Virus record (IMG/VR): IMGVR_UViG_3300009159_005447
Location: 6,447 to 70,446 of that record
Strand: one strand, 5' to 3'
From: a virus
DNA length: 64,000 bases
Under the pieces are notes generated by a model, which was not told where the DNA came from, made no database searches, and saw nothing but the letters and a program-made list of their open reading frames with translations. Positions 6,114-63,994 of the stretch are shown here, piece after piece. Position numbers and translations under genes: made by a program. The stretch's first letter is position 1; the number at the start of each line of letters is the position of its first letter.

Positions 6114-6604
6114 TAGAAATAGAACGTCCCTGCTGGTACTTTCATAGTAGTATTTTGTGAAGGGTTGCTATTATTTGTAATATTAATAATAATCAGACCG
6201 TTGTCAGATCCGTCACCTAATTTCCAAGTAATAGTGTTGCCTCCTAAATCCGGAATAGACCCACAAACAATACCTTTGGTTGTACAGGTTGATCCTTCAC
6301 CAAACATACTGTCTGTTAATTGTTTTGCTAATTGGCTATAAATCCTTGCTTCTAAATTAGCCAAGAATTTTGCTTGGGGAGTGTTTAATGCTTCAGCTTC
6401 TACCTTTGCTTTTAGTGTGTCGGACAGTGCTTTATTTTTATCTTTTTGTAGATCTTCTAATTGTTTTAGTGTTAGTACGTGACTACTGTACCCTGATCCA
6501 CTGAATGCAGGACTATTAAACTGATGTGACAATTCGGCTCCGTGACTACACACGGCAACTAATAGCGCAGCCGAAATGAAAAGTTCTTTGACTTTTTTGA
6601 TCAT
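6113..6604 (-). CDS. csgF: curli assembly protein CsgF-like
   Basis: Signal peptide followed by 'ELSHQFNSPAFSG' (CsgF FxNPxFGG-like); adjacent to csgG. Confidence 0.75.
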   Translation of the reverse strand: MIKKVKELFISAALLVAVCSHGAELSHQFNSPAFSGSGYSSHVLTLKQLEDLQKDKNKALSDTLKAKVEAEALNTPQAKFLANLEARIYSQLAKQLTDSMFGEGSTCTTKGIVCGSIPDLGGNTITWKLGDGSDNGLIIINITNNSNPSQNTTMKVPAGTFYF

Positions 6605-12761: not shown

Positions 12762-12787
12762 AAAAAGAAAACCCGCCGAAGCGGGTA
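12762..12787 (-). terminator. intrinsic terminator closing the tmRNA gene
   Basis: ACCCGC TTCG GCGGGT followed by TTTCTTTT. Confidence 0.8.
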
Positions 12788-12789
12788 TC

Positions 12790-13145
12790 TGATTTTCTGT
12801 TACGAGGTATGTCTTACCCTAGGCTGTGTTTTCACGCGGCCAATGCGAACTGTGAGTCGTTTGCGGTTACTTTGTTTTGCTTCTGCGGCCGGGAATCCCC
12901 AACCCTAACGGCTTCTACATTGCCGGACTGTCCATTTCATTACTCTTGACCCAATCGATATCTATGTCAGGCCCATCATAAAAAGACTATGTAACATACT
13001 ATTGCCAGTATACTTACAAAGTTAAAAACACCACATACTACTTGGTATACGTATTCTTCGCCTTTGTTACCCATAATATCTCCTTATGGTGGACCTGCCG
13101 GGAACTGCCCCCGGGTCTTGAATCCTTTTCAATCTACTTCATACA
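12790..13145 (-). ncRNA. ssrA: two-piece (circularly permuted) tmRNA; tag ANDSQFALAA
   Basis: Acceptor piece ends CCGGG-GGCAGTT-CCCGG-CAGGTCC-A-CCA (3' end 13087). Coding piece starts GGGCCTG at 12974 and gives a G3.U70 alanine identity pair. Resume context TAACC-GCA; tag ORF 12864..12832. Outer ends approximate. Confidence 0.9.
12976..13074 (-). CDS. putative 32-aa membrane peptide inside the tmRNA intervening segment
   Basis: TAAGGAG-6 nt-ATG; MGNKGEEYVYQVVCGVFNFVSILAIVCYIVFL*; fills 99 of the 112 intervening nt. Confidence 0.55.
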   Translation of the reverse strand: MGNKGEEYVYQVVCGVFNFVSILAIVCYIVFL

Positions 13146-13166
13146 GTCTTAAACTACATTATATAT

Positions 13167-13340
13167 TTATTTTTGGGCGGCGTCAATCGCTTTGGTGACA
13201 ATGTTGTAGACCTGTGCATACGTATCTGTAATTTGATCCAATTGTTGTTCTGTGACCAAATCATTATCCTCTAGTAGAACCAGGTCACGAGCTAGATTTT
13301 CTTGAAGATTTTTTAGTTGGTTTTGATCAGGTTGAGACAT
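13167..13340 (-). CDS. small hypothetical protein (likely start MSQPDQ)
   Basis: ATG 1 nt after the radical SAM gene stop; helical acidic composition. Confidence 0.5.
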   Translation of the reverse strand: MSQPDQNQLKNLQENLARDLVLLEDNDLVTEQQLDQITDTYAQVYNIVTKAIDAAQK

Positions 13341-35173: not shown

Positions 35174-36799
<1,626 letters not shown>

Positions 36800-54267: not shown

Positions 54268-54342
54268 TGGTACCTGGTCACGGTTTCGAACCGCGGACCC
54301 TTTCCGTGTAAAGGAAACGCTCTCCCCCTGAGCTAACCAGGC
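54268..54342 (-). tRNA. tRNA-Val(TAC)
   Basis: Cloverleaf, loop TT-TAC-AC, encoded CCA. Confidence 0.9.
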
Positions 54343-54350
54343 AATTGTAA

Positions 54351-54424
54351 TGGAGCGGGATAGGAGAATCGAACTCCTGACTAAACCTTGGCAAGGTTTC
54401 GTTTGACCATTAAACTAATCCCGC
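54351..54424 (-). tRNA. tRNA-Gly(GCC)
   Basis: Cloverleaf, loop TT-GCC-AA, U73, CCA. Confidence 0.9.
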
Positions 54425-54431
54425 ATATAAT

Positions 54432-54515
54432 TGGTGCCCCAGGGGAGACTCGAACTCCCACGCCTTTCGACAATGGCTTCTAAGACCATCGTGTCTACCA
54501 TTCCACCACCAGGGC
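54432..54515 (-). tRNA. tRNA-Leu(TAG)
   Basis: Long variable arm, loop CT-TAG-AA, CCA. Confidence 0.9.
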
Positions 54516-54590
54516 ATATCTAACAGGTTAATACCGGTTTAATGACCCGGCAGTCGCCATATGTTTATATCGCTGTAATTAACCTAAATT

Positions 54591-54665
54591 TGGTTGCGGG
54601 GGAAGGACTCGAACCTCCGGCTCCCGGGTTATGAGCCCGGTGGTCTACCACTGACGTACCCCGCG
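54591..54665 (-). tRNA. initiator tRNA-fMet(CAT)
   Basis: C1:A72 mismatch, GGG/CCC anticodon stem, CT-CAT-AA. Confidence 0.9.
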
Positions 54666-54670
54666 ATATT

Positions 54671-54856
54671 TTATTTAACCTTTAACAAATACTCAGTACC
54701 AATTTTTCCTTGTTCAATTTCTTTGATTGCTGTTATTGCTTCTTTGTTGTTGGTATCTATCATCGGCCGATGACCGCGCTTTAGTTCTCTAACTCGGACC
54801 GATGCCGCTAGCACTATGTCGAATCTATTTGTTAATGGTTCTTTTTTAAATGTCAT
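54671..54856 (-). CDS. rpoZ: RNA polymerase omega subunit-like protein
   Basis: NRFDIVLAASVRVREL, K..ITAIKEIEQGKI. Confidence 0.8.
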   Translation of the reverse strand: MTFKKEPLTNRFDIVLAASVRVRELKRGHRPMIDTNNKEAITAIKEIEQGKIGTEYLLKVK

Positions 54857-54865
54857 TTTATTCCT

Positions 54866-54940
54866 TGGTCCGGCGTACAGGAATCGAACCTGTATTGATA
54901 GCTTAGAAGGCTACTGTTCTGTCCATTGAACTAACGCCAG
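54866..54940 (-). tRNA. tRNA-Arg(TCT)
   Basis: Cloverleaf, CT-TCT-AA, CCA. Confidence 0.9.
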
Positions 54941-55096
54941 CTAATGTTGCTATTATACAGTATTTAACCTAGCTTGTCAATTAAAATGATGGTTTTTTTG
55001 TGTCAGGATAACCAACAACCCCGGATACACAGCCCATCCCACGTTTCGTGTATCGCGGACGCTGATTCTCAACCTAGGCGGAGGTGGGTCAGCGGT

Positions 55097-55699
55097 TTAC
55101 ATTGTAGGACCGTTGCCGTTCCTAAATCCGATCTCACCGCCTTCGTTGGCGATGCGCTTGTAGACATCCTCCAACAAGATAGGAGTGAAATCTGTTTGCT
55201 CCACGCAAACACAATGGTAACGGACATCGTTTTCGTCCCCGTACAAAATAGCACCAGTACGAGCATCAACGCCACGTGCCTTCTTGACACGATTTGTGTG
55301 CAAGTGACCGTGAATGTTAACACCAAACCGCCCCAATGATGCTTCGTGTACAGGAATATGACTCAAGATCATTCCGTTCAATACGTGATATGCTCTCAAT
55401 TCACGAAAGTACCTGCGGTACTCCTCATCACGGAAGATGTCGTGGTTGCCACGGATCAATACCTTGTCACCGTTCAATCGATGCAATATGGGCAAGGCCT
55501 TGCGGTTGATCACAACATCACCCAAGTGATAGACCTTGTCGTTGGGACGAACTGTGTCGTTCCACCGGCGTACCATTTCCTTGTCCATTTCGTCAGGGTC
55601 GGTCCAGGGACGGATCTTTGTAACTCCATCTTCTTCGGTAAAGCGGCACACACCGGCGTGACCGAAATGCGTATCACTGACTAAAAATGTTGCTGGCAT
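55097..55699 (-). CDS. calcineurin-like metallophosphoesterase
   Basis: SDTHFGH, HLGD, RGNHD, SH, HGHLH. Confidence 0.85.
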   Translation of the reverse strand: MPATFLVSDTHFGHAGVCRFTEEDGVTKIRPWTDPDEMDKEMVRRWNDTVRPNDKVYHLGDVVINRKALPILHRLNGDKVLIRGNHDIFRDEEYRRYFRELRAYHVLNGMILSHIPVHEASLGRFGVNIHGHLHTNRVKKARGVDARTGAILYGDENDVRYHCVCVEQTDFTPILLEDVYKRIANEGGEIGFRNGNGPTM

Positions 55700-55714
55700 T
55701 GTGTACTCCTTTCT

Positions 55715-56188
55715 TTAATTAAACCAAATCTCATCAAAGCCTTCCTCAACAGTGGGTGGCTCCACGCTTAAATCAATTGCCATCTGTTCTACTACATTCT
55801 GCGGAATAACTTTGCCTGGACGGCTGGCCAATCTACGAGCAAGTTCTTCTTTTTCAGGTGTCTTGAACACCACGGCAATTTTGTAGTAGTCGGGTAGCAT
55901 ACGAAACTTTCTTGCACGACTTGCAATAGAGGTACTGGTTTGATCCCAGATAATATCTTTACCTGCATCACGTGCGCCATTTACTGCACCAGCCATTTTG
56001 GCCACTGCAACAGGCATATATTCTTCAAATACTTCGCTGTAGGTTTTACCCACAGTCTCGGCCCATTCCTCCACGTACTTGTCTGTGGATACGTATGCAC
56101 AATCGTCAAACCATTCTTGCGATTTTGCCCAGGTGCTTTTACCCGAAGCAGGCACGCCAACCAGTACATAGAGTTTTCTTTTTTCCAT
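55715..56188 (-). CDS. P-loop kinase (AAA_33 / polynucleotide-kinase-like)
   Basis: GVPASGKST, STD, WDQT, EEGF. Confidence 0.8.
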   Translation of the reverse strand: MEKRKLYVLVGVPASGKSTWAKSQEWFDDCAYVSTDKYVEEWAETVGKTYSEVFEEYMPVAVAKMAGAVNGARDAGKDIIWDQTSTSIASRARKFRMLPDYYKIAVVFKTPEKEELARRLASRPGKVIPQNVVEQMAIDLSVEPPTVEEGFDEIWFN

Positions 56189-56247
56189 AGCTGTATTATA
56201 GCAGATACCTGCTGGTTTGTCAACCGAAAATTATGTAGTAATTAGTA

Positions 56248-57426
56248 TTACCTGCAGAATTCGCTGAGATCGACGCGATATCCGTCAATGTATTCACGCA
56301 TTAACTCGCGACCGTGAAAGGCATAGCCTGCAGGTCCGTTGTGAATCACGTGCCGTGACCAATTGACAAATCTATCTGAACTGTGCAATCTCTTTTTGCC
56401 AGCTTCAATGGCATAGCGCCAGAATGGTGTGTCCAATTTGTTTTCGCCTACGTAGTTGATGGCAATCAAATCCTGTATGTACTCCACGTGGTCCAAGTAC
56501 ATACGATTGACTATGTTCTCAACACCCCAGGCATTGTCTGTGTTTGCCAACGCTTCGCAAAAACGTTTGGTTAATAACATATAAAAATGCAAAGGGATAG
56601 CCTGGTGCGGTTCAAAGAAATAAAGCCTATTGCCCATAGACAATATCCTACCAGCTTGTGCCTGTGTTTTGTAGTAAGGCGCCCAGGAGAACTTGCGTAG
56701 CGGTTCTGTGTCAATGTCTTTGATAGCGGCAAACTTGGCCTTGGCTTCGTCTAGGCTGGTAATTGCGTTATTGTACAAATAGCCCCAGGCTTTTCTATGC
56801 TGTAAGGGTACACCAAACATCCATCCATTGTCGTGGATGTAGCTGGATGTATAAGGTTCATTGTAGCGTTGAAAATCAGGATACAGTATAACAGAGTTAA
56901 CAGAAACAAACTGTGGTTTATTGTATTCTACACTGTTTAATTCTTCTGCCGAAGGCGTTCCGCGGCAATCAATTACATAGTTAAAGGAGTAAGCATCTTT
57001 ATCACCTCTAATGGTGGCCGCATATTCAACCTGCGTGATACTTTTAACATTCTCTGGAACCATTGTAAAATTCTCGTAGAGTTGTTCAAGTCTTTCAAAT
57101 ACAAAGGCACTGAATTTCTCGCTGTTGACGTGCAATCCCGGTGCGGCATAGCGTATGGTAAAATCTTCACCGTGTGCCGCAGTCCAATTGTATTTGGTAC
57201 AATATCTTAAGGTACCATCGATCTTGTCTAGGTCTGTTAAAGGATCAAAACGAATAGCTTCGTACATCAGACCGTATATAGCGGCACTGGCGCTTTCGCC
57301 TACGTGAGTAATGGGGATATCAGGATTGTAAAAACAAGTTACCTCAACGGACTTGGGTAAGTTTGTTAATAAAGTTGAAACGGCAACTGCACTGGCGGTG
57401 CCAACGCCTACTATTCCAATTTTCAT
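56248..57426 (-). CDS. tryptophan-halogenase-like flavoprotein (divergent)
   Basis: IVGVGTAS, VGES, IDCRG, GWMFGVPL, FFEP. Confidence 0.75.
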   Translation of the reverse strand: MKIGIVGVGTASAVAVSTLLTNLPKSVEVTCFYNPDIPITHVGESASAAIYGLMYEAIRFDPLTDLDKIDGTLRYCTKYNWTAAHGEDFTIRYAAPGLHVNSEKFSAFVFERLEQLYENFTMVPENVKSITQVEYAATIRGDKDAYSFNYVIDCRGTPSAEELNSVEYNKPQFVSVNSVILYPDFQRYNEPYTSSYIHDNGWMFGVPLQHRKAWGYLYNNAITSLDEAKAKFAAIKDIDTEPLRKFSWAPYYKTQAQAGRILSMGNRLYFFEPHQAIPLHFYMLLTKRFCEALANTDNAWGVENIVNRMYLDHVEYIQDLIAINYVGENKLDTPFWRYAIEAGKKRLHSSDRFVNWSRHVIHNGPAGYAFHGRELMREYIDGYRVDLSEFCR

Positions 57427-57440
57427 AATTTATAATTTGT

Positions 57441-57517
57441 TGGTCGGAGTACGAGGGATCGAACCTCGGACCTCCTGGTCCCAAACCAGGCGCACTACCA
57501 GGCTGTGCTACACTCCG
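57441..57517 (-). tRNA. tRNA-Pro(TGG)
   Basis: Cloverleaf, TT-TGG-GA, CCA. Confidence 0.9.
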
Positions 57518-57541
57518 AAATTGTTCTGTTGTATAATGTAT

Positions 57542-58159
57542 TTAAGTAAGTTGACGTTTGAAGGGAATATAATGATTGTAATTTGTATTTACTACACGGT
57601 CAATTGGCACAATATCAAATGCAATAGTAATGCGTTGGCCTGATTGCATCCATTCACTGCTACGATGCTCGTCTCCGGCGCTACGACCAAACACCAATAA
57701 GCCGTTTTTATTATCTACATTGTAGACAACGTTTTTGTTGTTGACAAATCGATAACTGGTTGTGGTGTTGTTGGCATTGACACAATAATATCCGTGAATA
57801 ACGGAATCGCTTTCTTCCCAATGCCCGTGCCAGTCAATGAATTCACCAGATCTAAAAATGTTGGCCCAGGCCTGTATAACGTAAGACTTGTCTTTATGTA
57901 AAAACGGTTCTATGTTGTCCAGTAAACAATAGTATAATTTAAAAAAGTTTTTATCAGTAAATGTGAGTATGTTGTACTCTTTAAAGATAGAAGTCATATA
58001 TGACCCAAAAAAACTAAGATCCTGCGGCTCGGGAAATCGTTTTTTTAAAATTGATTCGGCCTGCAAACAAAGATTATACAGTGCTTGGTTATCATTGTTG
58101 TGACCTGTATCAATGGTCCAAAGATAATCTGGTATAATTGTTTTGGTGTCTACTGACAT
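57542..58159 (-). CDS. 2OG-Fe(II) oxygenase-like protein
   Basis: AWAN...WHGH, GYY, H, RITIAFD. Confidence 0.75.
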   Translation of the reverse strand: MSVDTKTIIPDYLWTIDTGHNNDNQALYNLCLQAESILKKRFPEPQDLSFFGSYMTSIFKEYNILTFTDKNFFKLYYCLLDNIEPFLHKDKSYVIQAWANIFRSGEFIDWHGHWEESDSVIHGYYCVNANNTTTSYRFVNNKNVVYNVDNKNGLLVFGRSAGDEHRSSEWMQSGQRITIAFDIVPIDRVVNTNYNHYIPFKRQLT

Positions 58160-58163
58160 AAAG

Positions 58164-58237
58164 TGGAGCGGGGTAAGAGAATCGAACTCTCAGCATTAGC
58201 TTGGAAGGCTAAGGTATTACCACTATACGAACCCCGC
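58164..58237 (-). tRNA. tRNA-Gly(TCC)
   Basis: Cloverleaf, CT-TCC-AA, CCA. Confidence 0.9.
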
Positions 58238-58288
58238 ATAAGTTATCTTGTAAAATATTTATTAATTAATTATTGATGTGATTTAATT

Positions 58289-59086
58289 TTATTGGACCGC
58301 CCACTGTTGCATCATTGGAAACACATCTGTGGTCCAGAACTTTGGACTGTTGTGTACAACGTGATGAGAATCTTGGTAGAAATTATTTTTGTATTTTAAA
58401 AACTTTAAACCAGACTGGGTAGCAGTATCTTCAAGCCATTCGTAATTTGGGTCTCCAAACCTGTCAGAGCCAAAAAATGTATCGCCAAGTACATACACCC
58501 AGGCCTGGCGAGTAAACTTAGTAGATTTTTCAAAATAATATCTAGTAAACTTTGTTCTCTGCTCGCACTTGGCGCTCCAGACTCCCACTAGATTAATTAC
58601 ACCGTGAACATCTTGTGGGTACTGCGATGAGTATACTGCACTTAAGAATCCACCACGACTATGCCCCATTAAAAAAACTTTGTTAACCTTGTACGATACC
58701 TTGGCCTGTCTAATAACTTCTTTAAGTTGGTCTTCGGCTTCAAGATATTGTTCTTCTAAGTTGCGTATGCCACAGCCTTGTTTTTCTTCTGTGTAGGCGC
58801 CTTCACTACCGCCCCGACCTTTACGCATATAGGTTAAAAAGATGTAACCTGCATCAGTCATTTGTCTTGCAATGTCAACAAATTTTAGCACATCACGAGG
58901 ATACGGGCCGGCACTGCCGTGATTCATAATAACAACTTGTCCGTTCCATTTTGCAGGACGGTACTCAAATGCCTGTAGGTTGTACGTGGAGTCTGCATCT
59001 TTGTACTTAATAACCATTTCGGTTTGGGCCTGGCTTTGTGCAGTTAAAAAAAGTAATACTAAAGTACTAATAATTTTAGTTAACAT
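58289..59086 (-). CDS. secreted alpha/beta hydrolase
   Basis: Signal peptide; NHGS, RKGRGGS, GHSRGG nucleophile elbow. Confidence 0.8.
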   Translation of the reverse strand: MLTKIISTLVLLFLTAQSQAQTEMVIKYKDADSTYNLQAFEYRPAKWNGQVVIMNHGSAGPYPRDVLKFVDIARQMTDAGYIFLTYMRKGRGGSEGAYTEEKQGCGIRNLEEQYLEAEDQLKEVIRQAKVSYKVNKVFLMGHSRGGFLSAVYSSQYPQDVHGVINLVGVWSAKCEQRTKFTRYYFEKSTKFTRQAWVYVLGDTFFGSDRFGDPNYEWLEDTATQSGLKFLKYKNNFYQDSHHVVHNSPKFWTTDVFPMMQQWAVQ

Positions 59087-59145
59087 TTCTTACCTAAAAG
59101 TTGTTGGTAGAACGTATTATACACTATTTTACACGGTTTGTCAAT

Positions 59146-59221
59146 TGGTGCTCCTAGATGGAGTCAAACCATCGTCTCCTCCATACCAAAGAGGTGTTTT
59201 ACCGTTGCAAACTATGGGAGC
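59146..59221 (-). tRNA. tRNA-Thr(GGT)
   Basis: Loop TT-GGT-AT; atypical T-loop TTTGACT; 5' end overlaps the halogenase stop. Confidence 0.75.
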
Positions 59222-60396
59222 TTATTAGCCATTAAACGATCAATAACAGGATACAATTCCATACCTTCTAAGTTTTGATAGAACGAATGTTCGGACCAAG
59301 AACCGTAGGGATTGTGTTTTAAAAGACTTTCTATTTCCAGGTGCTGTCTAGTACCTAGTGTACGAGATCTTTCAATGAAATTTCGTAACGCTGGCGTTCT
59401 GTACAACTCTCGTTGAAAACATCTCTCTGCACGTTCTTGTGCAAAGTCCCAGAATTTATTTTTGTACACAGAGCCGCCTAGATAATGCAACATAATCATA
59501 CCTTCAATTTCTTGAATAGTATTTAGGTATCCTGCGTTGGCCTGCTCTGGGCTGACAGTGCCGACTATTACATCAAAGGCTATACGATGTACAATGTCTG
59601 CAAAGTCCAATGACGTTGCTTCCAATGGTTCTAGAAAGAACGATGAATTGCCATTGTGTGCAACACGGTCTGTAAAATTCTGTCGTCTAAAATAATTATC
59701 AAATTCAATATAGTTGGTCGTATCGCTGGCGGTTAATCCAAACTCTTCAAATACTTCCTTTACATCTTCTTTGATTTCGTCTAGGCTGTTGATGTCTCTG
59801 TTAAACAGATACCCTATAGAGCATCTATTCTTTAAAGGAATACCAAATATCCATCCATAGGGTCTGGCCACACTCAGCGTATGATTGAACTTTGGACCAT
59901 CCCAGAAGCACTGTGTAACATAACAACTGTTAACTGGAATAAACTCCGACCTATGAAAGTCATCAAATTGCCTAGGTGATCCTGTGCAATTTAGCACATA
60001 GTCTGCGTCAACTTGATCGGGCGTTACTGCACGTTCAATGACATTGATCCTTGGATCATTTTTAAACTTGTCAAATATAAAGTCTTGCAATTTAACTGCA
60101 TTGATATGGTAGCCAATGCTGGGCGGTAAGAATGCGTGTAAAAATGTTTTACCTGTGTTCCAACCTTTTTTGTATATGCCCAACTTTGCGGTGCCATCGA
60201 TCCTATCTAAGTCGGTATAGATAAAACCAGTGTTGGCATACAATGCTGTACTAACTCTGATTGTGCCGCCTTCACCGACTGCCACAGGCTTGGTGTTAGG
60301 ATCGTGGTACCAATCAATTTCAAAATTACTCCAGCGCCAAAAATGTGCTAGAGTCAATGCACCTGCGGTGCCTCTTCCAATGATTGCTAATTTCAT
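59212..60396 (-). CDS. tryptophan-halogenase-like flavoprotein (start MKLAII)
   Basis: IIGRGTAG, VGEG, GTAKLG, GWIFGIPL, FLEPLEATS. Confidence 0.8.
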   Translation of the reverse strand: MKLAIIGRGTAGALTLAHFWRWSNFEIDWYHDPNTKPVAVGEGGTIRVSTALYANTGFIYTDLDRIDGTAKLGIYKKGWNTGKTFLHAFLPPSIGYHINAVKLQDFIFDKFKNDPRINVIERAVTPDQVDADYVLNCTGSPRQFDDFHRSEFIPVNSCYVTQCFWDGPKFNHTLSVARPYGWIFGIPLKNRCSIGYLFNRDINSLDEIKEDVKEVFEEFGLTASDTTNYIEFDNYFRRQNFTDRVAHNGNSSFFLEPLEATSLDFADIVHRIAFDVIVGTVSPEQANAGYLNTIQEIEGMIMLHYLGGSVYKNKFWDFAQERAERCFQRELYRTPALRNFIERSRTLGTRQHLEIESLLKHNPYGSWSEHSFYQNLEGMELYPVIDRLMANKLP

Positions 60397-60408
60397 ATTG
60401 TATTTAAG

Positions 60409-60483
60409 TGGTGGTAATGGAGAGAGTCGAACTTTCACCGGGCACCGTATGAAGGTGTTGCACTACCGTTATGCTACATTACC
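60409..60483 (-). tRNA. tRNA-Met or Ile2 (CAT), elongator type
   Basis: Loop TT-CAT-AC; paired G1-C72. Confidence 0.8.
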
Positions 60484-60560
60484 ATATGGAAACACACTAG
60501 CCTGCAGGACTACTAATAGCTCACGGGTACGCCGCTACTATTAGGTAATGTGTTTTCATA

Positions 60561-60634
60561 TGGTAGGGGTGCTCGGGAACGATCCGAGTTTTACTGGTTA
60601 AAAGCCAGTTACTTCACCTTAAAGTTTCACCCCC
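60561..60634 (-). tRNA. tRNA-Lys(TTT)
   Basis: CT-TTT-AA; atypical T-loop ATCGTTC. Confidence 0.75.
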
Positions 60635-60637
60635 ATA

Positions 60638-60712
60638 TGGTCCCTCCGGTGAGATTTGAACTCACACTTCTCGGATTAAGAGTCCGGTATGCTACCGTAA
60701 CATCTCGAAGGG
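60638..60712 (-). tRNA. tRNA-Lys(CTT)
   Basis: CT-CTT-AA, CCA. Confidence 0.8.
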
Positions 60713-60817
60713 ATGGATCGTAAATGTTTGTCTTTTACGTGCCATCCAGGACCATACGGGGTCTAGGATGACACTAGAGTTTACCTCGTTTCATATCATA
60801 TCCTTGTTTAAAAATGT

Positions 60818-60846
60818 ATTATAGCATCCTTTTAGTTGATTGTCAA
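60818..60846 (-). promoter_or_regulatory. consensus sigma70 promoter with extended -10
   Basis: TTGACA-17-TATAAT with TG at the extended -10 position. Confidence 0.8.
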
Positions 60847-60877
60847 CTAAAGACCCTGATGCTGGTAGGGTCAAATT

Positions 60878-60952
60878 TGGCCGGCTCTGAGAGGATCGAA
60901 CTCCCACCCTCTGTTTCGAAGACAGAGATGATATCCATTTCACCAAGAGCCG
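60878..60952 (-). tRNA. tRNA-Arg(TCG)
   Basis: CT-TCG-AA, CCA. Confidence 0.85.
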
Positions 60953-60956
60953 AATT

Positions 60957-61556
60957 TCAGCGCCAAGAGAAGTTAAGTACACTACGAACTTTTTTCGTAG
61001 GTAAAGTACTGCTGTGGTACTGGCTTCCGGGAAACATTACAGCTGATCCTCTGACAGGGTTAACACGTTGTATTTCTGTAAAAGATTTGTATTTTTCTTT
61101 TACTTGGTCCGGAGGAACATTGTAAAATGTTTCATTAAAAATAACTGTGTCGCCATCACAATTGTCAGTGACATAGTATACACCAGTATGGTATGGTACA
61201 GGATCTTCTAAGTCAGTGTGAATCAAATTGTGTTTGCGGCTGGTAATAATTGGAAACTGACAAATAGCCCGCACCTGAAGAAATTCTGTAAATGGCGTGC
61301 CGCTTAATTGGATTAGTTCATATAGCAAAGGTTTGACAAAATCAAAATGTGGGCTAACGTTGCTACCCCAGGCCTTATACTGGAACATATGAAACATCAC
61401 ACTAGATGTTTCTACACGTTCATCTTCGTGCGTGGTTTCATAGGTAAAATGCCAAGGCATAGTGTTTTCACCAACAAATCTATGCTCTAATTCTGCTTGA
61501 TATTGTTTAGATATTACATTGTGAACCACTAAGGGTTTATCTAGAACCTGACTCAT
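60957..61556 (-). CDS. 2OG-Fe(II) oxygenase
   Basis: IHTD (HxD), YY...DGDT, YHSS, RSVLNF. Confidence 0.8.
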   Translation of the reverse strand: MSQVLDKPLVVHNVISKQYQAELEHRFVGENTMPWHFTYETTHEDERVETSSVMFHMFQYKAWGSNVSPHFDFVKPLLYELIQLSGTPFTEFLQVRAICQFPIITSRKHNLIHTDLEDPVPYHTGVYYVTDNCDGDTVIFNETFYNVPPDQVKEKYKSFTEIQRVNPVRGSAVMFPGSQYHSSTLPTKKVRSVLNFSWR

Positions 61557-61573
61557 TGAATATTACCTTAAAT

Positions 61574-61649
61574 TGGCTCCCCGACCTGGGCTCGAACCAG
61601 GGACCTGCGGATTAACAGTCCGTCGCTCTACCGGCTGAGCTATCAGGGA
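61574..61649 (-). tRNA. tRNA-Asn(GTT)
   Basis: CT-GTT-AA, G73, CCA. Confidence 0.92.
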
Positions 61650-61699
61650 ACATTAACAAGTATATATGCCAACAGTGGGTGCTGGCAATTAAATAAGCA

Positions 61700-61912
61700 A
61701 TGAGCCTAAAGAACAACATTCAGCTCATCCAAGAAATTCTCAACAAATTACCCAAGGATGGCAGAGATACACCTAAGCAAACAATCTATGAGCTGGGATA
61801 TCTCATTGGTATGTTAGCCAGGCTGGCTAACGAAGATCATTTTGTATTTGGCTCACTTAAAAGAGAACACGAGAAGCTTGAAGAAAAAAACAAAAAAGAT
61901 GGCGCACCGTAG
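61700..61912 (+). CDS. hypothetical protein antisense to the tRNA cluster
   Basis: TAAATA at about 61690; 70 aa helical; stop overlaps the 3' end of tRNA-Asp. Confidence 0.5.
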   Translation: MSLKNNIQLIQEILNKLPKDGRDTPKQTIYELGYLIGMLARLANEDHFVFGSLKREHEKLEEKNKKDGAP

Positions 61913-61976
61913 GGGACTCGAACCCCTGGCCTCTTGCGTGACAGGCAAGCGATCTAACCAACTGAGCTAACGGTGC
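61900..61976 (-). tRNA. tRNA-Asp(GTC)
   Basis: CT-GTC-AC, G73, CCA. Confidence 0.92.
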
Positions 61977-61981
61977 CAAAC

Positions 61982-62058
61982 TGGAGCACAGGGTGGGACT
62001 CAAACCCACGGCTTTACGGATTTGCAATCCGGTACATTGGTCGCTCTGTCACCTGTGC
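61982..62058 (-). tRNA. tRNA-Cys(GCA)
   Basis: TT-GCA-AA, U73, CCA. Confidence 0.85.
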
Positions 62059-62066
62059 ATAATACT

Positions 62067-62156
62067 TGGCGGAACGACTGAGACTCGAACTCAGAAAGCG
62101 GCTTTCACCACTCGACGGATTAGCAATCCGCTCCAATACCATTATGGGACCGTTCC
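62067..62156 (-). tRNA. tRNA-Ser(GCT)
   Basis: Long variable arm, TT-GCT-AA, G73. Confidence 0.88.
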
Positions 62157-62372
62157 AAAATTAGTGTCTAGCTACTTGTCACCACAACAAGCCCTAGACT
62201 GAGCAGTTACTCTGTCCATAACATTTATTCTTCTGGGAAGGTTGTTAGTCCTCACCCTAGGCAGTTTCCAGTATCCCTTAAATAGGGGCTGTGAGGTCAG
62301 GTCCTAGTGTACCCCCTGTTCTATCGTTTCAGGGACGCTCTTATTATAACGTAAAAGAGTAAACCGGGTTTT
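62157..62372 (-). ncRNA. candidate structured ncRNA A (paralogue of B)
   Basis: No credible ORF; multiple stems; 3' ~75 nt similar to 62459..62534. Confidence 0.55.
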
Positions 62373-62458
62373 TGGTGGAGACGGATGGATTCGAACCACC
62401 GCGCTTTTTAGGGGCGAGATTTACAGTCTCGTGCAATCAACCACTCTGCCACATCTCC
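62373..62458 (-). tRNA. tRNA-Tyr(GTA)
   Basis: Long variable arm, CT-GTA-AA. Confidence 0.9.
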
Positions 62459-62729
62459 AAAATTAGTGTCAAGCTACCTGGTTCCCACCATTAGCCCTTG
62501 ACGCGAGCTGTTACTCTGACCATTCCGTTTATTCTCAAGTCTGTGTGCAGTTGGAATTCTGCCTATCAGAGTCTGAGTATTTCTCTCGCTAACGGTTTTC
62601 TGCCACCGGATCTCTCTCGTTAATCAAACGCCACTGTAACAGAAGTGGTACCGGGATAGGGTTGGGCCAAGATTGCAGGACCTAGTGTCTCATTGCTGAG
62701 AGAAGTATCCAGGCGGTATGGCCCAAATT
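62459..62729 (-). ncRNA. candidate structured ncRNA B (paralogue of A)
   Basis: Shares the 3' domain and ACACTAGGWCCTG with element A, with a compensatory change. Confidence 0.55.
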
Positions 62730-62804
62730 TGGAAGAGCTACGGGGAATCGAACCCCGCTTTACGGGATGAAAACCCGCTGTCCTAACCGATAGACGATAG
62801 CTCC
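62730..62804 (-). tRNA. tRNA-Glu(TTC)
   Basis: TT-TTC-AT, CCA. Confidence 0.88.
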
Positions 62805-62811
62805 ATTTAAA

Positions 62812-63035
62812 CTAACACATTGAAGCATATAAGGGAACCATTGCGGATCTTATTCTACACGACTTGCGAGGTCGGGTCACCGCGGTCATTACGTTGCAGA
62901 TTGCTCCATCGTCCTCCTGATACGATCTCAAGGTTTCGTGTAGCCCAGAGTGGTGTACGGCGCCCCGTATCTTTGTTGAACCCTCTAGTACCACCTAATG
63001 GATCTGCCAACCCATAATACACTTCAATGTGTTAG
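62812..63035 (-). ncRNA. candidate structured ncRNA D
   Basis: 14-bp perfect closing stem; sigma70 promoter at 63083-63111. Confidence 0.5.
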
Positions 63036-63145
63036 CTTATTAAATTTTTTAAAGAACATAGTTAATTGCTTAACTAGTCTCTATTATATACGAAAACCAA
63101 TACCCTGTCAACCTCAACGGGTATTGTGTACTTTTGTTTGCTGTT

Positions 63146-63220
63146 TGGTCCCGCCACCAAGAATCGAACTTGGACCTAGGCGTTAGGAGTGCCTTGTTCT
63201 GTCCATTGAACTACAGCGAG
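63146..63220 (-). tRNA. tRNA-Arg(CCT)
   Basis: CT-CCT-AA, CCA. Confidence 0.88.
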
Positions 63221-63222
63221 CT

Positions 63223-63299
63223 TGGTACCCCGTGTCTGATTCGAACAGACAGCCAACAGATTTTGAATCTATCCGCACTACCGATTAGCGTAACGGGGC
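63223..63299 (-). tRNA. tRNA with CAA anticodon (Leu) but short variable loop
   Basis: ATAGA-TTCAAAA-TCTGT; 5-nt variable region; A73. Confidence 0.75.
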
Positions 63300-63304
63300 A
63301 TATA

Positions 63305-63455
63305 GGTTTTTGAGAGACCAACTATCTTTCTCAAGGACTCACTGGCTTGTCTCGATTGAAGGAGTTTAACTACCTTGTGTTGCTACTGGTGTGTCAGTCT
63401 CAAGAATAGGGACCTAGCGCACAAGGGACTCAACTTTATCGTCTATCTCAAAATT
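63305..63455 (-). ncRNA. candidate structured ncRNA C
   Basis: Closing stem TTTTGAGA/TCTCAAAA; inner CCTTGTG/CACAAGG. Confidence 0.5.
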
Positions 63456-63531
63456 TGGTGCCGCCTCCAGGGATCGAACCTGGTTCCTCGGTGCTTCAAA
63501 CCGGTGCTATGACCACATCAGCTAAAGCGGC
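63456..63531 (-). tRNA. tRNA-Phe(GAA)
   Basis: TT-GAA-GC, CCA. Confidence 0.85.
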
Positions 63532-63535
63532 AAAT

Positions 63536-63609
63536 TGGCACCCGGAGTAGGAATCGAACCTACAATAGCAGAGTCAAAGTCTGTTGTGTTACCACTACAC
63601 TATCCGGGA
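63536..63609 (-). tRNA. tRNA-Gln(TTG)
   Basis: CT-TTG-AC, G73, CCA. Confidence 0.88.
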
Positions 63610-63619
63610 ATAAATTGAA

Positions 63620-63835
63620 TTTGTAAGTAGTTGCGTCCCTCATATCGCAACCATTTTCCCTTGTAATTAAGCCGGCAGGGTCAAGATACGTCACTTGGAA
63701 TACTTAACCAGTACAGTCTCCTTTACAGACCTCCGCGGTTCCCCGCGGGTGGGAGTTGAACCCATTAACCTTCTACTATATCAGTCCTTCGAAGAAACCT
63801 CTATAGCGTGTTGTTCTCTTGCTGACACTTACAAA
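63620..63835 (-). ncRNA. candidate structured ncRNA E with an embedded T-arm
   Basis: Closing stem TTTGTAAGT/ACTTACAAA; internal TGGG-TTCAACT-CCCA. Confidence 0.5.
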
Positions 63836-63838
63836 ACT

Positions 63839-63913
63839 TGGTGCCCCAGGAAGGAATCGAACCTCCACACCCTGATTACAAAACAGGACCTCTACCACTA
63901 AGGATACAAGGGC
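63839..63913 (-). tRNA. tRNA-Thr(TGT)
   Basis: TT-TGT-AA, CCA. Confidence 0.9.
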
Positions 63914-63918
63914 AAAAC

Positions 63919-63994
63919 TGGTCTCCCTACTAGGATTCGAACCTAGACCACACGGCCCCAAACCGTGTACGCAACCAGATAACGCTTTAGAGAG
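63919..63994 (-). tRNA. tRNA-Pro(TGG), second divergent copy
   Basis: CACGG-TTTGGGG-CCGTG; A instead of U at position 8. Confidence 0.8.

Follow-up and report, generated by a model that had tools for sequence, protein, structure and literature searches.

An open reading frame (ORF) of 32 codons, nested in the intervening segment of a circularly permuted (two-piece) transfer-messenger RNA (tmRNA) gene of the viral record IMGVR_UViG_3300009159_005447, is probably a genuine gene whose product is a small, C-terminally anchored membrane peptide, and its place within a functional tmRNA gene appears to be a slot for exchangeable cargo. The window, by which we mean the whole stretch of DNA analysed, comprises 64,000 nucleotides (nt) of this record (positions 6,447 to 70,446), and coordinates given without a locus name are those of the window. 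The intervening segment of two-piece tmRNA genes is regarded as a spacer; in the clade examined here it seems to be a recurrent, exchangeable site for protein genes. An initial annotation of the window had reported the 112-nt segment, its Shine-Dalgarno (SD) sequence, the ATG, the 32 codons, the TGA and the encoded peptide, MGNKGEEYVYQVVCGVFNFVSILAIVCYIVFL, and direct reading of the sequence found all of these, with all coordinates, to be exact to the base.

The reading frame and the tmRNA gene that encloses it

The features of a small protein-coding gene are all present in the window's segment, viz., an SD at proper spacing, an ATG (13074-13072), an open frame and a TGA (12978-12976), and a single T (12975) separates the stop codon from G1 (12974) of the tmRNA coding piece (Table 1). 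SD-like pentamers precede 15 of the 50 long ORFs of the window against a background of 2.8%, and TAAGGAG is the normal ribosome-binding motif of this phage. The predicted peptide begins with a polar N-terminus carrying a conserved E..YQ..CG motif and continues as a hydrophobic helix to its C-terminus.

The enclosing gene is a permuted tmRNA of the Rfam family RF04321, matched at 12832-13148 on the (-) strand over the full model (1-213 of 213) with 97.9 bits against a gathering score of 47 (E 8.6e-18), and the match was recovered again when the whole record was scanned. The 112-nt segment is an insertion between CCA and G1 in the RF04321 alignment. The acceptor strand CAGGTCC (13097-13091) is followed by ACCA (13090-13087), the final A of CCA being 13087, and pairs with GGGCCTG (12974-12968), including the G3:U pair (G12972 opposite T13093). 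The acceptor piece lies upstream of the coding piece, which is the two-piece order that a permuted tmRNA requires. The alignment ends at 12832, and the tag ANDSQFALAA is also found in the relatives L119 and L166 by ARAGORN (related loci are denoted here by L numbers). ARAGORN did not call the tmRNA in the window, and called a tmRNA* in 9 of the 15 relatives tested. The tag frame of the window stops at TGA (12832-12834, (-) strand), the stop in relatives being mostly TAA, with two stops in some.

Only one promoter-like site was found upstream of the ORF on the (-) strand (13158..13186). Since this one promoter and one terminator bracket the unit, the message for the ORF must be the pre-tmRNA or a piece cut from it, and the ORF has no promoter of its own, for which the 112-nt segment leaves no room.

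The source record has 70,446 bases and a CheckV completeness of 19%. Relatives reached via neighbouring genes are phage genomes of 330-525 kb that are 95-100% complete, and the window is hence a fragment of an uncultured jumbo phage. Each of five near-complete relatives has one permuted tmRNA locus and none of the five encodes SmpB, which suggests that the phage depends on the SmpB of its host. No match to the 421-nt tmRNA region was found in the GenBank phage collection by blastn ('distant' mode).

Homologues of the window peptide and evidence for coding

Relatives were gathered in four sets: 80 loci kept from those reached via a neighbouring metallophosphoesterase gene, at least 120 stretches via a 21-nt coding-piece pattern that is blind to the segment, 79 stretches via the CCA and SD junction, and 23 metagenome-contig stretches via the 3' junction of the window's segment. 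A second element seen in six loci (CATCTCC-ACCA, 185 nt, GGGGATG) proved to be an ordinary tRNA with a chance downstream match and was filtered out.

Homologous 112-nt segments are present in L238/L302, L300/L309 and L312. The ORF of L312 differs from that of the window by four changes, of which three are synonymous third-position changes and one is V>I, and L300/L309 carry the changes of L312 plus G>D. The peptide of L238/L302, also from a segment of 112 nt, has 50% amino-acid identity to that of the window. Shorter versions are encoded in L301/L310 (27 amino acids (aa), 97-nt segment) and in a 94-nt segment found as eight DNA variants (26 aa), such that the three segment lengths (112, 97 and 94 nt) are separated by multiples of 3 nt. 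M1, E7, Y10, Q11, C14, V26, I29 and F31 are invariant in the nine aligned sequences. A profile search against 1.84 billion representative proteins retrieved 6 clusters at E<=0.001, all with YQxVCGV. In four of the six (P0001-P0004) the annotated protein continues past the TGA into the tmRNA, a sign that annotation pipelines mishandle the gene of the window peptide. The check proposed with the initial annotation therefore came out in its favour: in homologous segments the SD, the ATG and a hydrophobic ORF are retained in frame, with a bias of the substitutions towards synonymous or conservative ones.

Genuine recoding of TGA, which P0001-P0004 read as W, was considered and rejected, as the tag frame of the window itself ends in TGA and no suppressor tRNA is found among the window's 24 tRNAs. 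Separately, ARAGORN identified a tRNA with the anticodon CTA (an amber reader, labelled tRNA-Pyl, and possibly a suppressor) at L077:3584-3659 (+); the tmRNA gene of that relative lies about 600 nt upstream of it.

The distribution of changes over codon positions gives a coding signal that recurs in several families. In the 26-aa group (8 unique DNAs) the variable columns at codon positions 1, 2 and 3 number 4/2/7 with a nonsynonymous-to-synonymous polymorphism ratio (pN/pS) of 0.26; the corresponding values are 11/4/19 and 0.20 in a 24-aa family (12 unique DNAs), 6/2/10 and 0.16 in a 22-aa family, 10/7/33 and 0.21 in a pair of DUF2061 proteins, and 16/16/49 and 0.24 in a 101-aa family. Summed by hand over the small families, with one 1/0/0 pair excluded, the counts are 44/17/57 (chi-square p 2.5e-5).

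Hydrophobicity is likewise a property of the SD-linked frame. A 15-residue Kyte-Doolittle mean of at least 2.0 is reached in 21 of 23 peptide groups, as against only 1 of 45 translations of alternative frames and 7.7% of the shuffles. The usual design has a short N-terminal part, polar or acidic, and then a helix up to the last residue. For the window, a frame that is open and equally hydrophobic arises in 0.035% of 20,000 interior shuffles. Taken alone, the window ORF is only suggestive against chance, and the comparative evidence decides: by the conservation seen among its homologues, it is a real conserved protein-coding gene and no chance frame.

The intervening segment as an exchangeable gene slot

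In the clade the segment measures from 24 to about 490 nt, and the shortest is a bare hairpin with a CCA that is not fully encoded. The segment-blind sample holds 74 unique segments among the matches listed, 58 of them of at least 60 nt. Among these 58, an SD in the first 9 nt together with an ORF covering at least 60% of the segment is found in 18, an SD without such an ORF in 3, an ORF without SD in 9, and neither in 28. A spanning ORF is thus present in 18 of the 21 SD-bearing segments as against 9 of the 37 without SD (Fisher p 7.3e-6; 58 segments listed). Two of the three SD-bearing segments without such an ORF have ORFs that run past G1, and five of the nine ORFs without SD are short GTG or TTG frames that look like chance. 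Among segments longer than 150 nt the strict combination of SD and ORF is found in 9 of 12, and two of the remaining three (L134, L101) hold an ORF that fails the strict test. A scan for CCA followed by SD gave 76 new loci, 61 of them with complete tmRNA contexts, and by our own count 50 of these 61 have an SD-proximal ORF that ends at the segment end or no more than 15 nt from it. The flanking pieces match RF04321 at full length and above the gathering score in 15 of 16 ORF-bearing loci (L101 being missed) and in 11 of 11 further loci.

The cargo is diverse. Hydrophobic peptides of 20-39 aa form about a dozen sequence families, and beyond these the slot carries Pfam-family and other proteins of 50-152 aa; much of the cargo as a whole is not hydrophobic. 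DUF2061 proteins are encoded in L138/L016 and in L117 (E 3.7e-21 and 3.5e-20, profile 1-52 of 52, above the curated cut-off), and a DUF6356 protein in L134 (E 7.3e-10, above the curated Pfam cut-off). The 52-aa cargo of L127 (10082-10240) is homologous to an ordinary gene of the window, that at 13167-13340 on the (-) strand, with 57% identity and E 7e-19. Further cargo proteins, of 64-152 aa, are unassigned, several of them with a common MRI(K/N)E.. N-terminus. Ten cargo proteins compared with PHROGs had no match below E 0.001, and Pfam gave nothing significant for 8 of 10 cargo proteins in a first set, 8 of 10 in a second set and all small peptides. The finding of such unrelated cargo in one position (DUF2061, DUF6356, soluble proteins and a homologue of an ordinary gene) suggests a general gene slot. 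The idea, put forward with the initial annotation, that this particular peptide is specifically coupled to trans-translation is not supported.

Comparison of segments with their flanks points to exchange. The segments of the window and L312 are 95.5% identical, their acceptor pieces 80% and their coding pieces 82%; for the window and L300 the values are 94.6%, 70% and 68%. Conversely, L121, L129 and L016 have flanks that are 83-90% identical and segments that are unrelated. Because segment and flank identities disagree, the spacer appears to be passed between diverged tmRNA genes, and the conserved flanks are presumably where the recombination takes place. We relied on these pairwise identities, as a FastTree phylogeny of the concatenated mature parts was too poorly resolved for gain and loss counts. 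Cargo proteins of 101-152 aa in L101/L217/L276, L118, L170, L257, L249 and L150 begin with a common MRI(K/N/Q)E(L/I).. and are otherwise dissimilar, as if cassettes recombine just inside the ORF start.

Bacterial genomes, each species being represented by one, were scanned for a T-loop and TCCACCA separated by a single base from AAGGAG. The 7 stretches obtained include no permuted tmRNA; all belong to ordinary tRNA genes, whose 5' strand lies 76-77 nt upstream. Since the pattern is narrow, this result does not mean that permuted tmRNA genes of cells are devoid of such ORFs.

The processing stem and its relation to the SD and stop codon

The ends of the segment pair with each other and extend the acceptor stem, as the initial annotation had supposed. 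In 117 unique segments position +i pairs with position -(4+i). Positions 1-10 are paired in 93% of cells, against 45-65% in registers shifted by 1-3, and the true register shows 2-6 pair types per position. The architecture thus consists of the acceptor stem, a 4x4 internal loop in which ACCA lies opposite T(G/A)AT, a covarying stem of 10-12 bp and a variable loop. The minimum free energy structure predicted for 12968-13096 has -42.1 kcal/mol (z -4.59), a stability reached by 0 of 200 shuffles; in it CAUAAGGAGAU is paired with GUCUUUUUAUG, and both the SD and the AUG are paired. Four ORF-bearing relatives and one ORF-less relative fold alike (z -3.8 to -6.35). The predicted burial of the SD in the flanking stem is thus borne out by the fold of the window, by the folds of relatives and by covariation.

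Gating of translation as the purpose of this stem is a different matter. T[GA]A is found at the leader position in nearly all segments, with an ORF or with none, and ORF-less segments have the same covarying stem, which argues that the stem predates the ORFs and is a processing stem that the ORFs have borrowed. The SD is a purine-rich version of the 5' arm, and many peptides end in FL, LL or SL since the pyrimidine 3' arm encodes their last residues. In ORF-bearing versions the SD sits in the 5' arm directly after CCA, and the usual end of the frame is the leader U(G/A)A, 1 nt before the ribonuclease P (RNase P) site. In 19 of 28 families the start codon shares its frame with the leader stop, against an expectation of one third (p 2e-4; tallied by hand).

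Four families (L103/L167, L147/L187, L223 and L229) have no in-frame stop before G1, and in these the SD-proximal ORF enters the mature coding piece. Two of the four are conserved at the peptide level between variants. L103/L167 encode 30 aa with CPSC..HKC, and L147/L187 encode a hydrophobic peptide of 29 aa that is conserved between the two. A 21-aa ORF in L147/L187 (pN/pS 1.32) was discarded as the wrong frame, the SD-proximal frame being the one that gives the conserved 29-aa peptide.

A possible course of expression

The arrangement of these elements suggests how the peptide might be made. The 3' arm, transcribed about 100 nt after the SD, would pair with the 5' arm and sequester the SD and start codon, and translation would be limited to a short co-transcriptional interval or to molecules in which the stem has opened. 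A ribosome that reaches the terminal stop would unwind the stem and cover G1, such that translation and RNase P cleavage would exclude each other on one molecule. Synthesis of the peptide would then be early and low, keeping pace with transcription of the tmRNA.

A further idea, which we consider doubtful, is that the cargo ORFs end at the RNase P cut in order to provide a near-non-stop or non-stop message beside the tmRNA, as a substrate or timer for trans-translation of the phage. Ribosomes with very little mRNA past the A site are substrates of tmRNA-SmpB. Cleavage at G1 would leave the stop of the window ORF 1 nt from the 3' end of its message, and the messages of the four families mentioned above would be without any in-frame stop if RNase P cuts first. 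A race between ribosome and RNase P would then decide whether the peptide is left intact or is tagged with ANDSQFALAA and destroyed. If true, this would be the first case of a tmRNA gene with a substrate of its own.

Weighing of the peptide-gene reading and its alternatives

Several observations weigh against the reading of the ORF as a peptide gene in an exchangeable slot. Cargo is optional, about two thirds of the sampled segments being without a convincing ORF, and the segment census rests on our own regular expression, with counts among the matches listed. The frame of the window is open to its terminal TGA in 5.3% of 20,000 interior shuffles, and the other small slot ORFs are singly not significant, with the frame open in 6-32% of shuffles. 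Four unique 112-nt DNAs of the window subfamily give variable columns of 13/5/9 and a pN/pS of 0.60, a weak signal for which one distant pair is largely responsible, and one 23-aa family has a similarly weak pN/pS of 0.82. The interiors of the ORFs contain 39% T, compared with 27% for ORF-less segments, and the U-rich 3' arm allows only hydrophobic residues at the last two or three positions of the peptide, so that hydrophobicity could partly ride on composition; it is nevertheless frame-specific. Pfam returned 0 families at E<=1 for the window peptide, which also lies below the curated cut-offs of DUF2061 and DUF6356, and none for six other slot peptides of 22-39 aa; a further slot peptide, that of L205, has a weak match to FixQ only (E 0.17). 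The best ESM Atlas score for the window peptide, 0.82, is below a meaningful level and gives no lead. The SD and start codon are locked in a very stable predicted structure, and translation may be rare.

RNA libraries add a further point of this kind. Six RNA-library runs share words with the stretch, with small shares (0.09-0.14), and in four RNA runs at 85% likeness the assembled contigs of relatives cover the mature tmRNA parts and leave out 12994-13056. One contig (X18 record 23) spans the acceptor and coding pieces of a relative across its own 70-nt segment. Since such contigs cannot show RNA ends or separate precursor RNA from DNA carry-over, no conclusion on expression or processing is drawn from them.

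Could the ORF instead be a regulatory leader, in which the act of translation matters and the ribosome melts the stem, blocks RNase P and tunes tmRNA maturation by ribosome availability? A stop codon 1 nt before the RNase P site, an SD within the stem arm, starts in frame with the leader stop in 19 of the 28 families and the high diversity of peptide families would all suit such a leader. We nonetheless find it improbable, as the window peptide family retains the E..YQ.VCG motif across 6 clusters at 50% identity, 21 of 23 groups show frame-specific hydrophobicity, full-length Pfam proteins and cargo of 100-150 aa would be needless for a leader, and many tmRNA genes of the clade are without any ORF.

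We give equally little credence to the segment being a selfish toxin cassette, that is, a mobile, type-I-toxin-like membrane poison parked in the tmRNA spacer whose SD is silenced by fold-back until processing or trimming. The peptides are indeed small and hydrophobic, the SD is sequestered by pairing of the 5' and 3' ends in a manner that resembles the control of hok or tisB mRNA, and near-identical cassettes occur in diverged tmRNA genes. However, a consensus scan of the (+) strand found no promoter-like site facing the segment (other promoter types being possible), and the sole (+) strand site, at 13138-13167, points away from it. Pfam gave no toxin-family match for the window peptide, whose polarity, with a polar N-terminus and a helix to the very C-terminus, differs from that of type I toxins. 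Moreover, ORF-less segments also have the stem and much of the cargo is not hydrophobic.

Least of all do we favour a chance ORF in a disposable spacer, its SD-like purine run being merely a permitted stem-arm sequence and its frame open by luck, which the shuffle frequencies given above and the existence of the stem and the leader T[GA]A regardless of any ORF would allow, and which is very improbable in view of the conserved motif, length changes in multiples of three, codon-position bias, frame-specific hydrophobicity, the association of SD with ORF and the Pfam cargo.

Relation to known systems

Two-piece tmRNA genes were reportedly described by Keiler et al. in 2000 and by Sharkady and Williams in 2004. 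Circularly permuted tmRNA genes of this type are given for Alpha- and Betaproteobacteria, Cyanobacteria and some aquatic phages (RF04321, RF01849-51; PMC11915505, PMC9004378). In the main text of the 2025 tmRNA database paper the word ORF is absent, and the inserts singled out within such segments are a single tRNA-Ala gene and a single repetitive element (PMC11915505). The paper on the Melnitz phage counts 53 two-piece phage tmRNAs and describes a riboswitch, and no ORF (PMC9004378). The initial annotation had named no described case, and in the literature searched, which comprised the main text of open full texts, there is likewise no report of a protein-coding ORF in the intervening segment of a permuted tmRNA. 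The gene of the window agrees with the described two-piece genes in the order of acceptor piece, segment and coding piece, in the T-arm, the ACCA, the G3:U pair and a tag ending in ALAA. It differs in that their segment is a spacer, whereas that of the phage appears to carry ribosome-binding sites and protein genes.

Homing-endonuclease genes occur in some tmRNA genes interrupted by group I introns (PMC11915505). There, too, a protein gene lies in a part that is removed from the mature RNA. In contrast, the window has no intron according to Rfam, its T-arm and T-loop are uninterrupted, the phage cargo includes no nuclease family in Pfam, and the segment would be removed by tRNA-type end processing of a permuted gene and not by splicing. 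Dual-function RNAs that encode small proteins include SgrS/SgrT and SR1/SR1P (PMC5521070). In these, as in the phage gene, a single transcript has a structural or regulatory role as RNA and is also the mRNA of a small protein; unlike the phage ORF, which lies in the discarded part with its SD and stop within processing signals, their ORF is in the mature RNA. RNAIII, with hld, is another dual-function RNA.

Type I toxin mRNAs such as hok and tisB share with the phage segment a small hydrophobic peptide and an SD sequestered by end-to-end pairing, and differ from it in that no antisense RNA is evident at the phage locus and in the polarity of the peptide. In the tRNA clusters of T4, small ORFs are co-transcribed with tRNA genes. 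Here, as in the phage, an mRNA and tRNA-like RNAs share one precursor and are parted by RNase P and tRNA-processing enzymes. Unlike these clusters, the flanking pieces of the phage gene are halves of one molecule that pair across the ORF, and the bounds of the ORF meet the CCA end and the RNase P site to the nucleotide.

Thus, the phage gene is a new arrangement of known ideas rather than a new principle. In it a ribosome-binding site and a stop codon are fused to RNA-processing signals to the nucleotide, offering a clean natural system in which translation and tRNA-type processing compete on one transcript. It would also add to the small membrane peptides of phages a class that gene callers overlook or annotate wrongly, and long intervening segments may be worth inspecting in tmRNA annotation pipelines.

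Other features of the window and of related loci

Table 1. Positions of the ORF, the parts of the permuted tmRNA gene and other features of the window
Feature	Position	Strand	Remarks
Intrinsic terminator hairpin and T-run	12771..12786	(-)	end of the transcription unit
tmRNA coding piece from G1 (12974)	12787..12974	(-)	Rfam RF04321 and RF01849
Tag reading frame GCA..TGA	12832..12864	(-)	ANDSQFALAA and stop; sequence reading
Intervening segment, 112 nt	12975..13086	(-)	outside the mature tmRNA by family definition
Leader TGAT	12975..12978	(-)	directly 5' of G1, opposite ACCA; TGA is the ORF stop; conserved
ORF, 32 codons and TGA	12976..13074	(-)	product MGNKGEEYVYQVVCGVFNFVSILAIVCYIVFL
Stem 3' arm (anti-SD)	12979..12990	(-)	encodes the last residues ..IVFL; covariation register and fold
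Stem 5' arm	13075..13086	(-)	extends the acceptor stem, contains the SD; covariation register and fold
Shine-Dalgarno sequence TAAGGAG	13080..13086	(-)	directly after CCA, 5 nt before ATG, inside the stem 5' arm
Acceptor piece (T-arm, acceptor 3' strand CAGGTCC, ACCA)	13087..13148	(-)	RF04321 alignment and sequence reading
Sigma-70-type promoter, TTGACG, 17-nt spacer, TATAAT	13158..13186	(-)	11 of 12 consensus matches
Small gene upstream of the tmRNA promoter	13167-13340	(-)	its 3' end overlaps the -35 box
GroEL-like chaperonin gene	35174-36790		
tRNA cluster, 24 genes	54268-63994	(-)	all genes on this strand

The window also contains collagen-like tail fibre genes. Twenty sequencing runs, the six RNA runs among them, share words with the stretch, and runs that do so are labelled as freshwater or lake metagenomes, a label only, from which no habitat conclusion is drawn.

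A few related loci have unusual segments or more than one acceptor piece. The 98-nt ORF-less segment of L063 (4449-4546) and L129 contains a T-arm-like hairpin, GGTTCGATTCC flanked by paired bases, and ARAGORN found no tRNA in this segment. The 62-nt segment of L075 and L021 is a tandem duplication of a unit of about 25 nt and holds no ORF. In L238 (9850-10260, (+) strand) the acceptor piece is duplicated, with near-identical copies 273 nt apart, both upstream of one coding piece, and the ORF-bearing segment follows only the second copy. L210 has two acceptor/coding pairs about 2 kb apart. L260 carries two different permuted tmRNA genes about 7 kb apart on one contig (L260:146-303 and L260:7195-7260, (+) strand), whose tags differ; one segment has 146 nt with a 39-aa ORF and the other 54 nt and no ORF.

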